A DNA stretch of 31,333 nucleotides from a virus, in the IMG/VR virus record IMGVR_UViG_3300047550_007048; one strand, 5' to 3'. How positions within the stretch are numbered: position 1 is the first letter of the stretch; each line of letters starts with the position of its first letter. A model generated the notes under the pieces. The model was not told the origin of the DNA, did no database searches, and worked only from the letters and a program-made list of their open reading frames with translations. A program made the translations under genes and the position numbers. Positions 12,335 to 24,155 of this stretch are shown one piece after another.

Positions 12335-12416
12335 TGGTGCTACGGGAGGGACTCGAACCCCCGGTGTTGTGTGCCTGCTTACAAGGCAGGTGCTGTCGCC
12401 GCTGAGCCACCGTAGC
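12335..12416 (-). tRNA. tRNA-Thr(TGT) with unusually long (11 nt) variable region, CCA encoded
   Basis: Acceptor GCTACGG/CCGTAGC. Anticodon arm CCTGC-CTTGTAA-GCAGG. T-arm GGGGG-TTCGAGT-CCCTC. Confidence 0.6.
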
Positions 12417-13822: not shown

Positions 13823-13964
<142 letters not shown>

Positions 13965-19366: not shown

Positions 19367-19441
19367 TGGTTGGCCCACCCGGTTCTGCCCCGAGGTCTTC
19401 CGGTTATCAACCGGGCGCTCTCCTAATTGAGCTATGAGCCA
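19367..19441 (-). tRNA. tRNA-Ile(GAT)-like with non-canonical T-loop GGCAGAA
   Basis: Acceptor TGGCTCA/TGGGCCA. D-arm GCTCAATTAGGAGAGC. Anticodon loop TTGATAA. CCA encoded. Confidence 0.5.
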
Positions 19442-20227: not shown

Positions 20228-20304
20228 TGGTGCCTGCGAGTGGATTCGAACCACCAACATCCGTGCGCTGAACACGGCGACTCTACCAGTTGGCCTACGC
20301 AGGC
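20228..20304 (-). tRNA. tRNA-Leu(CAG)-like, class-I sized (5-nt variable region), Leu-type D-region GGCCAACTGGTAGAGTC, A73, CCA encoded
   Basis: Acceptor GCCTGCG/CGCAGGC. Anticodon arm CCGTG-TTCAGCG-CACGG. T-arm GGTGG-TTCGAAT-CCACT. Confidence 0.5.
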
Positions 20305-20421: not shown

Positions 20422-20498
20422 TGGTGCATCCGGTGGGATTCGAACCCACACTGTGTGATCTCTCAAACCACTGACTCTACCAGTTGGCCTACGGATGC
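20422..20498 (-). tRNA. tRNA-Leu(GAG)-like, class-I sized, same Leu-type D-region, A73, CCA encoded
   Basis: Acceptor GCATCCG/CGGATGC perfect. Anticodon arm GTGGT-TTGAGAG-ATCAC. T-arm GTGGG-TTCGAAT-CCCAC. Confidence 0.55.
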
Positions 20499-20673: not shown

Positions 20674-20750
20674 TGGTACCCACGGTGGGATTCGAACCCA
20701 CAACCTCCGGTTTCTAAAACCGTTACCTCTACCAGTTGGGCTACGCGGGC
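20674..20750 (-). tRNA. tRNA-Leu(TAG)-like, class-I sized, Leu-type D-region GCCCAACTGGTAGAGGT, A73, CCA encoded
   Basis: Acceptor GCCCGCG/CGTGGGT (two G-U pairs). Anticodon loop TTTAGAA. T-arm GTGGG-TTCGAAT-CCCAC. Confidence 0.55.
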
Positions 20751-21866: not shown

Positions 21867-21943
21867 TGGCTCCCGGAGTAGGAATTGAACCTACCTGATG
21901 AACAGATTAACAGTCTGCTGGCACACCTTGCGCCCATCCGGGA
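21867..21943 (-). tRNA. tRNA-Asn(GTT) second copy, CCA encoded; its 5' part overlaps the 3' end of the DUF559 endonuclease ORF
   Basis: Acceptor TCCCGGA/TCCGGGA. Anticodon arm GCAGA-CTGTTAA-TCTGT (identical to the 14628 copy). T-arm GTAGG-TTCAATT-CCTAC. Confidence 0.7.
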
Positions 21944-22527
21944 TTAAAATCAATGAACTCTTTCATCTGTTGGATGGAACCTTTTGCATCACTGCATATT
22001 TCTTTCCATCGCATGCGTAATATAGCGTAGCCTTCTGCGGCTAGCAACCCGTCTTTTGATTTATCTCGTTCTTTTTGATCCAAGAATCGATCATGCTGTT
22101 CGCCATCTATTTCGATGACACGTTTCTTATGCAACCATGCAAAATCTAGACTGAATCGATAGAATGGATGTTCCCTGACGTAATTTTTGTCATCGAACTC
22201 ATTTAATATAACCTGCATAAACCATTTTTCTGGCCAACTAGGTTGGTTATTCCACCGGCTTCTACCAATGTTCCATGCTCGCCCATCTGCATGGGCTTTT
22301 TTCATACTATTCGATCTTTGTTTATTCTGCTCTTTGGTAGTAACACGAGGGTATTTTACTGATGCTAGTTTAGTCGCATCGGATTTTGATCTGGTAATAA
22401 TCTTACCGTCTCTCACAGCTTTTAGGAAAGTAATATTAGACATCTTGAAATGCTTGATAACCTCTCTACTGGAGTGGTTATCATCATAATATTTTTGCAC
22501 TTCTATCCAGTTTCTGGTACGACTCAT
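21907..22527 (-). CDS. DUF559 / Vsr-like (restriction-endonuclease-fold) endonuclease-domain protein, probable mobile endonuclease (about 206 aa from ATG 22527; GTG at 22542 is an alternative)
   Basis: FSLDFAWLHKKRVIEIDGEQHDRFLDQKERDKSKDGLLAAEGYAILRMRWKEI matches the DUF559 core (D...E.DG..H). Low GC. GCTAAATATTGAT motif directly upstream of the ATG. Confidence 0.6.
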   Translation of the reverse strand: MSRTRNWIEVQKYYDDNHSSREVIKHFKMSNITFLKAVRDGKIITRSKSDATKLASVKYPRVTTKEQNKQRSNSMKKAHADGRAWNIGRSRWNNQPSWPEKWFMQVILNEFDDKNYVREHPFYRFSLDFAWLHKKRVIEIDGEQHDRFLDQKERDKSKDGLLAAEGYAILRMRWKEICSDAKGSIQQMKEFIDFNPGWAQGVPADC

Positions 22528-22540
22528 ATCAATATTTAGC
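22528..22540 (-). promoter_or_regulatory. GCTAAATATTGAT motif abutting the ATG of the DUF559 gene
   Basis: Motif family member. Confidence 0.45.
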
Positions 22541-22703
22541 ACAGTCAGATGCGTTTACCAATTCCGCCATCCAGGAATAAAACCCAAAGTCTGTGCCCTT
22601 TTGCCTCATACACCGAAGGAGTCTTGGCTGGCCGGACCGCCCAGTTGTTGTTCTTGTTGCGTGTGTTATAGCATGCACCGCAGTTGGTGTCAATGCCTTT
22701 CTT

Positions 22704-22788
22704 TGGAGCAGGTCGGGGGAATCGAACCCCATTGCCGTTAAGCGCCAGGTTGGAAGCCTGGTGACGGGCCCACCCGTCTACGACCTGC
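22704..22788 (-). tRNA. non-canonical tRNA-Sec-like (8-bp acceptor / 4-bp T-stem, 6-bp D-stem with 4-nt D-loop, 14-nt variable arm) tRNA with Gly anticodon TCC; U73, CCA encoded
   Basis: Acceptor GCAGGTCG/CGACCTGC. D-arm GACGGG-TGGG-CCCGTC. Anticodon arm CCAGG-CTTCCAA-CCTGG. T-arm GGGG-TTCGATT-CCCC. Confidence 0.5.
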
Positions 22789-22795
22789 ATGTAAC

Positions 22796-22881
22796 TGGAG
22801 CGGGATGGGGGAATCGAACCCCGGTGCTGATTAGGCTCCAGACTGGCAATCTGGTGACAAGCCCACTTGTCCACACCCCGC
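22796..22881 (-). tRNA. second tRNA-Sec-like (8/4, 6-bp D-stem with 4-nt loop, 15-nt variable arm) tRNA with Gly anticodon GCC; U73, CCA encoded; 5' half overlapped by the GIY-YIG ORF 3' end
   Basis: Acceptor GCGGGGTG/CATCCCGC. D-arm GACAAG-TGGG-CTTGTC. Anticodon arm CCAGA-TTGCCAG-TCTGG. T-arm GGGG-TTCGATT-CCCC. Confidence 0.5.
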
Positions 22882-23694
22882 GCTATTCTTTGCGATATAG
22901 CCACGTTTTAGACCATTATCAAAAACATGCCGATCTATACCATATTTAGTCAATATGTCTCGTTTTTTCATGCCAGCATCGATATCGAGTTGGATACCGT
23001 TCCAGTCTCTGGCTGGTTTTTTACGTTTGCCAGAATCCCATGCTGATTTATTTGCAGAGGAGATTTTATCCCTGGTTTCATTTGAAACGATTTTTGGTTT
23101 CTTCATCCTAGCAGCATTCATTCGCCGTTGCCGTGAAGCCCGTTCCTCATCAGACAAGACCTTGTTTTTCAACGTTTCAGAAATCTTTGCCTTGTGCTCT
23201 GGCGAAAGCTTTCTGGAGGACAATGACTTCCTCATTTTATCCTTTACACCAGGGCGCGATGCCATTGGAGATTTTAGCAATCGCTGCCTTGATGCTTCTT
23301 TTATTTCCGGCGTGGCTTTTCCACGGACAGAATTGCTGATTCTTTCTTTTGTCTCGGTTGAATGTTTATAACCGGGTCTCTTGTTTTTACCAGTAGAATT
23401 GATGTAATCAAATCCACCTTTTCCACCAATCTTGATGTTATATGTGTTAGATCTTTGGACAAATGCCTCGTTGACAATCTCTGCTTCTTTCCGAAACATG
23501 TCATCAGACGTTTCAAAGTATTCTAGGATTGTTTTCGTGAATTTTTCAATTCCGTGTTTTTGGATAGCAGCATTTAGGACCTTACCGGATCCCATGTAAC
23601 CATCATTGATGTCATCGGTGATATGCACACCGATGTAAATCTTGCCATTTATGTGATTGGTGATCTGATATAGGTAGCGATAAATCTGCTTCAT
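22831..23694 (-). CDS. GIY-YIG homing endonuclease with NUMOD repeats and a C-terminal DNA-binding domain (287 aa)
   Basis: IYRYLYQITNHINGKIYIGV...GSGK is the GIY-YIG core. The C-terminus is homologous to the 17771..18082 ORF. Low GC. GTATAAATAGTCC motif abuts the ATG. Confidence 0.8.
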   Translation of the reverse strand: MKQIYRYLYQITNHINGKIYIGVHITDDINDGYMGSGKVLNAAIQKHGIEKFTKTILEYFETSDDMFRKEAEIVNEAFVQRSNTYNIKIGGKGGFDYINSTGKNKRPGYKHSTETKERISNSVRGKATPEIKEASRQRLLKSPMASRPGVKDKMRKSLSSRKLSPEHKAKISETLKNKVLSDEERASRQRRMNAARMKKPKIVSNETRDKISSANKSAWDSGKRKKPARDWNGIQLDIDAGMKKRDILTKYGIDRHVFDNGLKRGYIAKNSAGCGQVGLSPDCQSGA

Positions 23695-23856: not shown

Positions 23857-23941
23857 TGGTGGGGAAGGTAGGATTCGAACCTACTAGGCCGAAGCGGCAG
23901 ATTTACAGTCTGCTCCAACCCTCCAACGTTGGCGCTTCCCC
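23857..23941 (-). tRNA. tRNA-Tyr(GTA), class II, A73, CCA encoded
   Basis: Acceptor GGGGAAG/CTTCCCC. Anticodon arm GCAGA-CTGTAAA-TCTGC. T-arm GTAGG-TTCGAAT-CCTAC. Confidence 0.7.
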
Positions 23942-23954
23942 AAGCTCTTGAAAG

Positions 23955-24038
23955 TGGAGGTCCGGGTGGGACTCGAACCCACGGTGTTTGCATAGCTGAT
24001 TAAGAGTCAGCCCCCTTCGCCACTCGGGACACCGGACC
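23955..24038 (-). tRNA. class-II (Ser-like D-arm CCCGAGTGGCGAAGGG, 12-nt variable arm) tRNA carrying Lys anticodon CTT; U73, CCA encoded
   Basis: Acceptor GGTCCGG/CCGGACC perfect. Anticodon arm GCTGA-CTCTTAA-TCAGC perfect. T-arm GTGGG-TTCGAGT-CCCAC. Confidence 0.5.
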
Positions 24039-24155
24039 ATTTATGGCCTTAGAGACACGACGCCGGTGCTGCCCTAACCCTCTTGCGCTCAAGTCCCCAT
24101 CCTACGGCTGCATCTCGGAATGGGGCGGGCTATCTGCTCTCGTCGTGCTCTAACT

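Follow-up and report, generated by a model that had tools for sequence, protein, structure and literature searches.

Large phages encode a family of lysine tRNAs whose bodies have the long-arm architecture of a different structural class. The member analysed here lies on the minus strand, at positions 23,955 to 24,038, of the IMG/VR virus record IMGVR_UViG_3300047550_007048, a stretch of 31,333 nucleotides (hereafter the window) that we take to be part of an uncultivated large phage. It combines the anticodon CUU with a type-II-shaped body, i.e. one with a long variable arm, a feature normally reserved for the tRNAs of leucine, serine, bacterial tyrosine and selenocysteine (Sec). This gene, referred to below as the long tRNA-Lys(CUU), and its 60-odd relatives are a lysine tRNA family that is common in large phages. 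The family is widespread in the tRNA arrays of these phages and apparently undescribed, as no description of a type-II-shaped phage tRNA-Lys was found in the searchable full-text literature, which omits most subscription journals. We consider it probable that the long tRNA-Lys(CUU) is a functional phage tRNA-Lys, reading AAG codons and charged through its anticodon by lysyl-tRNA synthetase (LysRS).

Read 5′ to 3′ on the minus strand, from 24038 to 23955, the gene is GGUCCGG-UG(U)-CCC-GAGUGGCGAA-GGG-G-GCUGA-CUCUUAA-UCAGC-UAUGCAAACACC-GUGGG-UUCGAGU-CCCAC-CCGGACC-U-CCA. ARAGORN reports it as tRNA-Lys(ctt), 84 nt in length including the encoded CCA, and the Rfam tRNA model RF00005 gives it 49.6 bits, the gathering score being 29 (E = 6e-8, whole window). 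The gene was originally recognised in a sequence-only reading, which described a tRNA of type-II shape in which a 7-bp acceptor stem is combined with an expanded variable region (here 11–12 nt), a canonical T-arm and a paired anticodon arm presenting CUU. This description holds in full. The same reading raised the possibility that a covariance model would shift the anticodon to that of another isotype; the RF00005 alignment matches all of model positions 1–71 and keeps CUU at 34–36, without any shift. The hallmarks of a tRNA are retained throughout: U8, G18-G19, U33, A37, a UUCGA T loop, a perfect acceptor stem and CCA. The D-arm, with its 3-bp stem and 10–11-nt loop, is of the bacterial type-II kind. 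The minimum free energy (MFE) fold is a cloverleaf in which the variable region is unpaired; the best pairing available to this region is UG with CA around CAAA, followed by CC. Folding energy itself was discarded as evidence, since its z-score (-0.88) is usual for tRNAs and hence uninformative. An independent assembly (Logan SRR35181309, locus L198) is identical across this gene, the second lysine tRNA gene next to it and the downstream tRNA-Tyr, so the long gene is not an assembly artefact of one contig. The coordinates of its parts are collected in Table 1.

Relatives were collected with a pattern made of a degenerate type-II D-arm (CCGAG.GG..AAGG), a YUU anticodon, a long gap and a GGTTCRA T loop, with a variable region of at least 10 nt. 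In IMG/VR this pattern found 37 loci with 38 matches, all of them tRNA-Lys of 81–97 nt according to ARAGORN, and mostly on contigs of 40–600 kb. In GTDB, where one genome was scanned for each of 185,579 species, only 21 loci match, 19 of which lie inside dense tRNA arrays. Most of these GTDB loci are on contigs of metagenome-assembled genomes (MAGs) assigned to Alphaproteobacteria, and two 'archaeal' MAG contigs hold tRNAs identical to those of IMG/VR phages. Two Thermoleophilia MAG contigs of 0.8 and 2.8 Mb carry a long tRNA-Lys(UUU) each (L050, 6852-6937; L053, 7181-7266). No other long lysine tRNA lacks a tRNA array within 8 kb, and these two solitary genes may be chromosomal copies or integration sites. 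Among isolated phages, BLAST detected long lysine tRNAs in all phiCbK-like Caulobacter phages, in Brevundimonas phages, in the Rhodobacter phage RcXuper, in the Ruegeria/Roseobacter phages vB_RpoS-V10 and DSS3P8, and in the Xanthomonas phages X1 and XacN1. GenBank labels these homologues tRNA-Lys, with the exception of one homologue in Ccr29 and Ccr32 that is called tRNA-Ser. BLAST matches in Lak megaphages were rejected as homologues, the Lak-B match that was examined being a true tRNA-Tyr(GUA), which nevertheless sheds light on where the body came from.

Altogether, 63 distinct type-II-shaped tRNAs with a CUU or UUU anticodon were parsed, almost all of them from phage or phage-like arrays. 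The window gene conforms to the D-arm, anticodon and T-loop pattern of this family and to its variable-region length, and, of the 786 distinct tRNAs compared, the 17 closest to it are without exception long lysine tRNAs, at 76–85% identity. The secondary structure of the family is closely maintained. Every one of the 63 members forms all seven acceptor pairs, and each position shows four to five kinds of pair; although the pattern scan did not require acceptor pairing, ARAGORN reports only sequences that pair, so this pairing is partly selected for. The pairs of the anticodon stem and T stem are formed in nearly all members, and the anticodon loop reads CU-YUU-AA in 60 of the 63. The variable arm itself contains a hairpin of at least 3 bp in 52/63 members, compared with 30.9 ± 3.6 in shuffled sequences, and is closed by a GNRA loop in 36/63, compared with 0.4 in shuffles, even though 27 different stem sequences are used across the family. 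By these comparative measures, the long lysine tRNAs appear to be under selection as tRNAs.

The sequence-only reading called the body of the long tRNA-Lys(CUU) Ser-like, and this attribution did not survive comparison. Among 119 distinct tRNA-Ser from phages and arrays, none has a variable region shorter than 13 nt (median 18), whereas that of the window gene is 11–12 nt. Where the hairpin of tRNA-Ser could be parsed (31 cases), its stem is mostly 4–7 bp long and is followed by 0–2 unpaired 3′ bases in 30/31. By comparison, tRNA-Tyr variable regions range from 11 to 21 nt (median 13.5), with 2–3-bp stems and mostly 3–4 unpaired 3′ bases, and the variable arm of the long lysine family follows this tyrosine pattern, with 3–4 unpaired 3′ bases. 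The D-arm and anticodon stem of the long lysine form are those of the Lak-B1 tRNA-Tyr(GUA), with a single D-loop base differing. The D-arm had also been described as Ser-type; it is of type II, yet not specific for serine, being a generic bacterial arm common to tRNA-Tyr, tRNA-Ser and tRNA-Leu. Judged by its parts, the body is closest to the tRNA-Tyr kind and does not look Ser-like, and as a consequence the relevant candidates for non-cognate charging are the tyrosyl and leucyl enzymes (TyrRS and LeuRS) rather than seryl-tRNA synthetase (SerRS).

The gene was also compared with each canonical isotype. It has the CUCUUAA loop with A37 of a canonical tRNA-Lys, but not the 4–5-nt variable loop and 4-bp D stem (they are 11–12 nt and 3 bp, respectively) nor A73, which is replaced by U73. 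It lacks the variable arm of at least 13 nt with a 4–7-bp stem and the NGA or GCU anticodon of tRNA-Ser; it does have the pairs G1-C72 and G2-C71, which are common to short tRNA-Lys too. The type-II D-arm and a variable arm within 11–15 nt are shared with tRNA-Tyr, but A73 and GUA are not, only U35 of the latter being retained. The tRNA-Sec model RF01852 is not supported either: the best-scoring model is the general tRNA model, no Sec hit was retained and the anticodon is CUU rather than UCA. The combination of a type-II D-arm with a GUGGG T stem was considered as a signature specific for lysine and abandoned, because the matches listed were mainly tRNA-Ser and tRNA-Leu and the combination is thus generic for type II.

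On the comparative evidence, the amino acid carried by the long tRNA-Lys(CUU) is most likely lysine. The host LysRS would charge it mainly by reading U35 and U36, and it would then supply lysine at AAG codons in parallel with the adjacent short tRNA-Lys(CUU). The discriminator base, U73, would protect the Tyr-like body from TyrRS and LeuRS; A73 is critical for TyrRS and for Escherichia coli LeuRS (PMC9976931). In the final and weakest step, which we put forward only tentatively, the altered body may provide a second tRNA-Lys that goes unseen by nucleases targeting tRNA-Lys, or by other factors recognising the tRNA body. The acceptor stem of the long gene (GGUCCGG) is one base pair apart from that of its short neighbour (GGACCGG), and is unlike that of either tRNA-Tyr of the window. 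In RcXuper, CcrRogue and Karma, both lysine isoacceptors are long and no short tRNA-Lys is present in the arrays examined. At least eight phages carry a long and a short tRNA-Lys with the same anticodon together, which suggests that the two bodies are not equivalent and would fit a difference in their vulnerabilities.

The discriminator varies within the family (A29/U27/G3/C2), as would be expected of tRNAs whose synthetase reads mainly the anticodon. Other isotypes in the same loci are far more uniform at this position: A in 15/15 tRNA-Tyr and 93/94 tRNA-Leu, G in 25/28 tRNA-Ser and 23/23 tRNA-Asn, and U in 30/33 tRNA-Gly. A discriminator other than A is found in 33/64 long and 15/56 short lysine tRNAs (Fisher p = 0.009, uncorrected for relatedness); this excess would fit, as an inference, the proposed role of U73 as protection against TyrRS and LeuRS. 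A G2.U71 pair occurs in 11/63 long and 6/25 short lysine tRNAs and is rare in other isotypes except tRNA-Asp. An acceptor beginning with GGA was examined as a lysine signature and dropped, as 90% of tRNA-Ser also start with GGA, which is commoner there than in tRNA-Lys. Codon usage bears on the amino acid as well. In 13 core open reading frames (ORFs) of the window, lysine is encoded by AAG 137 times and by AAA 25 times, so AAG accounts for 85% of lysine codons; it makes up 3% of the codons of the phage. AAG also encodes the catalytic lysine of an SDR protein (in YGIAK) and a Walker-A lysine (in GGPGAGKS). The phage thus depends on AAG meaning lysine, since a CUU tRNA inserting serine or tyrosine would damage its own proteins.

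Several points weigh against charging with lysine, or against an adaptive role for the long body. Because a YUU anticodon was part of the pattern used to collect the family, there is some circularity in calling all its members lysine tRNAs. The window member departs from most of the family in its variable arm, which is degenerate and forms no stable stem: it does not have the hairpin of 3 bp or more with a GNRA loop and 3–4 unpaired bases, and the member at locus L023 is similarly degenerate. In all seven close relatives of the window (loci L001-3 and L063-66, found in IMG/VR and JGI metagenomes through a conserved spacer or upstream ORF), the site of the long gene is occupied by a short tRNA-Lys(UUU), so that in this lineage the long gene is dispensable or recently acquired (or a replacement). 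U73 would weaken charging if the host has a class II LysRS of the E. coli type, for which A73 matters, N73 being marginal for class I LysRS (PMC9976931). U73 alone does not exclude SerRS, as 10 of the 61 phage tRNA-Ser listed have it (the others have G in 50 cases and A in one); it was considered as proof against SerRS, and this argument was dropped. The pairs G1-C72 and G2-C71 are also identity pairs of serine, conserved in bacterial tRNA-Ser (PMC9976931). An anti-nuclease role is pure inference, and neutral tolerance of the expanded body is a serious alternative.

The class of the host synthetase was considered as a general explanation, namely that long lysine tRNAs are confined to phages of hosts with class I LysRS. 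Most of the isolates infect Alphaproteobacteria, which mostly have LysRS1 (PMC1475646), and the idea fits Caulobacter, Rhodobacter and Ruegeria hosts. It is not general, however, and is weakened by the Xanthomonas phages X1 and XacN1, whose hosts have LysRS2 and whose long lysine tRNAs carry A73. In the window, the tRNA-His has the canonical G-1:C73, which speaks against a host from that subgroup of Alphaproteobacteria where class I LysRS is the usual enzyme. We retain the link to class I LysRS solely as a hypothesis concerning the range of tolerated discriminators.

If the long tRNA-Lys(CUU) is a lysine tRNA, the question becomes what its body is for. One possible but doubtful answer is that large phages re-dress tRNAs in the 'wrong' structural class while keeping cognate identity, as a disguise from host factors that recognise the tRNA body. 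We are equally hesitant about its extension to other isotypes, in which lysine would be re-dressed most often, Asn, Thr, Trp, Ile(UAU) and Gly would also gain an arm, and Leu would lose one. A variant, in which the shape marks phage tRNAs as 'self' during a phage-driven purge of host tRNAs, is held no less tentatively. Against all of these stands a neutral account, in which the gene is a functional tRNA-Lys with a non-adaptive long arm that arose by drift or by recombination within the array and is tolerated by LysRS, EF-Tu and the ribosome; we give it a limited though substantial chance of being right. Long arms do occur sporadically in Asn, Thr, Trp, Ile, Gly, Pro, His and Met tRNAs, tRNA-Leu often loses its arm, and the close relatives of the window manage without the long gene. 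In addition, the variable and T halves of the window tRNA-Thr(UGU) and long tRNA-Lys(CUU) are similar, suggesting exchange within the array. Drift does not readily account for a family that is old and widespread, nor for GNRA-closed variable hairpins far in excess of shuffle expectation. The adoption of a matching type-II D-arm is not the product of a simple loop insertion, and at least eight phages have kept long and short forms with the same anticodon side by side.

A function outside translation appears improbable. The long gene could then be a nuclease decoy or sponge, a regulatory tRNA-like RNA or a decaying copy, a view to which the degenerate variable arm and the close relatives lacking the long gene lend some weight. 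Decoding of AAG is already covered by the short tRNA-Lys with the same anticodon, 117 nt away, and some of the irregular tRNAs studied by Mukai et al. are charged and yet unused in translation (PMC5389517). However, every tRNA hallmark is intact in the long gene, every stem of the conserved family shows compensatory changes, and in the examined arrays of phiCbK-like phages and RcXuper the long form is the sole type of tRNA-Lys.

The sequence-only reading favoured a deliberate set of long-armed tRNAs with non-cognate anticodons, and such a dramatic recoding is unlikely. In its explicit form, a type-II tRNA with a lysine anticodon is charged by SerRS and inserts serine at AAG, which we regard as very unlikely. 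The type-II D-arm, the expanded variable region, and G1-C72 with G2-C71 as in bacterial tRNA-Ser (PMC9976931) are compatible with it, as are the minority of phage tRNA-Ser with U73 and the tRNA-Ser label in the Ccr29 and Ccr32 records; Mukai et al. moreover regarded a long variable arm combined with G73 or U73 as a hint of serine identity in allo-tRNAs (PMC5389517). The variable region of the window gene, by contrast, forms at most 2 bp and no MFE stem, and the family has tyrosine geometry. About half of the family has A73, compared with 1/61 of the phage tRNA-Ser listed, and long forms are the only lysine tRNAs in the arrays of several isolated phages. Serine at AAG, which is 3% of codons and specifies catalytic lysines, also conflicts with the needs of the phage, and in the other long-armed tRNAs the identity elements are those of the isotype to which they belong. 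Each long-armed tRNA retains the discriminator that its anticodon would lead one to expect, and the U73 that had been read as a common signature is simply the normal discriminator of tRNA-Gly; the free N73 of the lysine family and the AAG-encoded catalytic lysines oppose a non-cognate set as well. Finally, an anticodon-mutated copy of tRNA-Tyr (or tRNA-Leu) still charged by TyrRS or LeuRS, and hence inserting Tyr or Leu at AAG, is hardly credible: it would explain the Lak-B1-like D-arm and anticodon stem, the Tyr-type length and geometry of the variable arm, the retention of U35, a major TyrRS determinant (PMC9976931), and the genuine tRNA-Tyr located 13 nt downstream, but the gene has U73 where Tyr and Leu tRNAs of the same arrays have A73 almost without exception, its acceptor matches the short tRNA-Lys and neither tRNA-Tyr of the window, and with catalytic lysines encoded by AAG the phage would poison itself.

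Table 1. Positions of the long tRNA-Lys(CUU), its parts and other features discussed (window coordinates unless a locus is given)
Feature	Positions	Strand	Basis or remark
Whole gene, type-II-shaped tRNA, anticodon CUU, 84 nt	23955..24038	-	ARAGORN, RF00005, L198
Acceptor stem, 5′ strand, GGUCCGG	24032..24038	-	Pairs perfectly with 23959-23965
D-arm, (U)CCC GAGUGGCGAA GGG G, 3-bp stem and large loop	24012..24029	-	Covariance-model alignment
Anticodon arm, GCUGA CUCUUAA UCAGC	23995..24011	-	Covariance model, ARAGORN, MFE fold
Anticodon CUU, reads AAG	24002..24004	-	Positions 34-36 by ARAGORN and Rfam model
Variable region, UAUGCAAACACC, at most 2-bp stem	23983..23994	-	12 nt (covariance model), 11 nt (ARAGORN)
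T-arm, GUGGG UUCGAGU CCCAC	23966..23982	-	Commonest T stem in the long lysine family
Acceptor stem, 3′ strand, CCGGACC	23959..23965	-	
Discriminator U73 (23958) and encoded CCA (23955-23957)	23955..23958	-	
Short tRNA-Lys(CUU), 75 nt, A73, minimal D loop	24156..24230	-	ARAGORN
Spacer between the two lysine tRNA genes, 117 nt	24039..24155	-	Conserved in related phages
Canonical type-II tRNA-Tyr(GUA), A73	23857..23941	-	13 nt downstream of the long gene
tRNA-Thr(UGU), 82 nt, 11-nt variable region cacacaacacc	12335..12416	-	ARAGORN
Two 8/4 Sec-like long-arm tRNA-Gly, U73	22704-22788, 22796-22881	-	Anticodons UCC, GCC
Three type-I-shaped tRNA-Leu (CAG, GAG, UAG)	20228-20304, 20422-20498, 20674-20750	-	
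GIY-YIG/NUMOD3 homing-endonuclease-like gene	22831-23694		
DUF559 homing-endonuclease-like gene	21907-22542		
tRNA-Ile(UAU) with expanded variable region, examples in other arrays	L009 11562, L029 3725, L034 7782, L049 2030, L057 5015		

The immediate neighbours of the long gene are themselves informative. The sequence-only reading placed a normal tRNA-Lys(CUU) nearby, and such a gene is indeed present at a distance of 117 nt, but 'normal' is too generous: its D-arm has a 4-bp stem with a loop of only 4 nt (ACCC-UGGU-GGGU), and it falls below the Rfam tRNA gathering score while reaching 33.4 bits on the tRNA-Sec model. The short gene is kept in the relatives L001-3 and L063-66, there with U73; the L001 copy (3508-3582) is otherwise one D-loop base apart from that of the window. 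With A in the window and U in L001, N73 of the short tRNA-Lys looks unconstrained in this host. The spacer between the two lysine genes is nearly as constant, with about three differences from L001 up to about 20 nt before the long gene, and a 34-nt probe from it has exact matches in four metagenome loci, L063-66. The spacer includes a hairpin (CCCCAU...AUGGGG) and might serve as a promoter, as a signal for processing or as a small RNA. A metagenome scan with this spacer found no second lineage with the exact long gene, and an exact 31-nt core of the gene had no match in IMG/VR. The downstream tRNA-Tyr is not a duplicate of the long gene, as D-arm, acceptor and T stem all differ.

The relatives also carry tRNAs with the amber-reading anticodon CUA (L001 435-508 and 12366-12441; L002 9952-10027; L003 7060-7133; L064 3458-3531; L066 4808-4881). 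They prompt the question whether TAG might be suppressed or recoded among these phages; in the window, TAG is used as a stop codon once in 13 ORFs.

Lysine is not the only isotype with an altered body in these arrays. The two long-armed, Sec-like tRNA-Gly noted in the sequence-only reading are present in the window, to which a tRNA-Thr(UGU) that it did not list can be added. The variable regions closest to that of the long tRNA-Lys(CUU) are those of L023 (UAUACAACACC) and of this tRNA-Thr, and the resemblance, which extends over the variable and T half, suggests that modules may have been exchanged within the array. In both tRNA-Gly the acceptor stem has 8 bp, the T stem 4 bp and the D stem 6 bp with a tetraloop, while the variable region is long; one of them passes the Rfam tRNA-Sec gathering score (53.7 bits). 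They have the (8/4) shape described by Mukai in 2017, yet carry the glycine identity set of G1-C72, C2-G71, U73 and C35C36; the tRNA-Gly(GCC) is conserved in a relative (L002 10898-10983).

Across these arrays, long-armed tRNAs of normally short-armed isotypes keep the discriminator of their isotype (G73 in Asn, A1-U72/G73 in Trp, U73 in Gly and A73 in Pro). The tRNA-Asn(GUU) of phage phiKZ (L072, AF399011 269557-269645) is 87 nt long and type-II shaped, with GGC-GAAA-GCC-CACC and G73, and Xanthomonas phage X1 has a similar long-armed tRNA-Asn (L069 2265-2350). Long-armed tRNA-Trp genes were found in CcrColossus (86 nt) and Lak-B1 (92 nt), and a long-armed tRNA-Thr in Synechococcus phage BUCT-ZZ01. 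In 11 phage arrays, tRNA-Ile(UAU) has a variable region of 21–25 nt and keeps an ordinary 4-bp D stem (examples in Table 1), an expansion of a different kind from that of the long lysine tRNAs. The reverse of the lysine case is found in tRNA-Leu: the three in the window are 77 nt long with a short variable loop and A73, and 51 of the 177 distinct tRNA-Leu in the examined loci have a variable region of less than 9 nt. Further irregular tRNAs in the window, all on the minus strand, are a tRNA-Ser(GCU) at 13827-13964 with an insertion of about 49 nt in its anticodon loop (ARAGORN with introns; Rfam 41.8 bits), and a tRNA-His(GUG) at 26936-27008 and a tRNA-Ile(GAU) at 19370-19441, both detected by Rfam only and both with the T loop GCAGAAC in place of UUCRANY.

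The window as a whole forms a tightly packed array of tRNA genes. ARAGORN detects 42 of them, every one on the minus strand, and Rfam adds five. Small ORFs and homing-endonuclease-like genes are scattered among them, and the flanking proteins have matches in phage families, among them a DNA polymerase exonuclease subunit, methyltransferases and a radical SAM protein. A large minus-strand ORF at 1-2505, cut at the window edge, contains the shoulder and repeat domains of Major Vault Protein (E = 8e-20 and 4e-7 in Pfam), which are unusual for a phage protein. Searches of INPHARED by megablast or blastn with stretches of the window found no related isolated phage; relatives occur only in IMG/VR and JGI metagenomes, and identical fragments of the window are present in independent Logan and JGI assemblies.

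The long lysine tRNAs matter for several reasons, and tractable models in which to study them exist, in phiCbK with Caulobacter and RcXuper with Rhodobacter, and for the analogous tRNA-Asn in phiKZ with Pseudomonas. If they are charged with lysine, they show how much variation in the tRNA body is tolerated by LysRS, EF-Tu and the ribosome, and they offer natural scaffolds for the design of orthogonal tRNAs. Lysine charging would also make it testable whether phages escape immunity by a change of tRNA shape, beyond changes of anticodon-loop sequence. Should lysine charging turn out not to occur, they would represent naturally occurring mis-sense tRNAs of phages and be of even greater importance. 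A disguise of the kind outlined above would, if true, represent a new counter-defence principle and show by natural example that a type-II tRNA-Lys is accepted by LysRS, EF-Tu and the ribosome. More practically, annotation pipelines and isotype-specific models can mislabel these genes, which appear in databases as 'tRNA-Lys' and occasionally as 'tRNA-Ser'.

Among known systems, the closest are the genes annotated as tRNA-Lys in isolated phages, which share with the window gene the type-II D-arm, a variable arm of 11–20 nt, the CU-YUU-AA loop and the setting in an array. Their T stem is mostly GUGGG/CCCAC, and identity to the window gene reaches 83.5% (RcXuper). In most of them the variable stem is 3–4 bp long and carries a GNRA loop; that of the window member does not exceed 2 bp. 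The phages concerned are unrelated to that of the window, with no nucleotide match beyond the tRNA, and the searchable literature does not describe their lysine tRNAs as type-II shaped. Bacterial tRNA-Tyr resembles the long tRNA-Lys(CUU) in its 3-bp D stem, CCGAG.GG..AAGG D-arm, variable arm of 11–15 nt and U35; the latter differs in having CUU rather than GUA, U73 rather than A73, and acceptor and T stems like those of phage tRNA-Lys.

A functional parallel is provided by anti-phage nucleases, of which tRNA-Lys is a favourite target. The PARIS effector AriB recognises the tRNA-Lys anticodon stem-loop and cuts between positions 40 and 41, and phage T5 escapes it by means of a variant tRNA-Lys (PMC11464382). 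This cut site would lie close to where a long variable arm emerges, and by analogy it is a reasonable hypothesis that the change of body hinders nucleases acting on tRNA-Lys. Like the long tRNA-Lys(CUU), the T5 gene is a phage-borne extra tRNA-Lys that differs from the host type; it is short-armed, however, and owes its resistance to substitutions in the anticodon stem, whereas the long lysine tRNA is altered in its D-arm and variable arm.

The allo-tRNAs and the (8/4) tRNA-Ser and tRNA-His of alphaproteobacterial phages are also long-armed and found in phage clusters, some with non-serine anticodons and with G73 or U73 (PMC5389517). In allo-tRNAs the acceptor and T stems are arranged 8/4 or 9/3 and the D-arm is Sec-like, with a long stem and a tetraloop; the long tRNA-Lys(CUU) has neither feature, being 7/5 with an ordinary type-II D-arm. 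In nematodes, the nev-tRNAs reported by Hamashima et al. in 2012 are said to combine a type-II body with a Gly or Ile anticodon and to be charged with leucine. Those tRNAs are reportedly eukaryotic, of leucine identity and mis-sense, whereas the comparative evidence on the long tRNA-Lys(CUU) points to a tRNA that is cognate for lysine.

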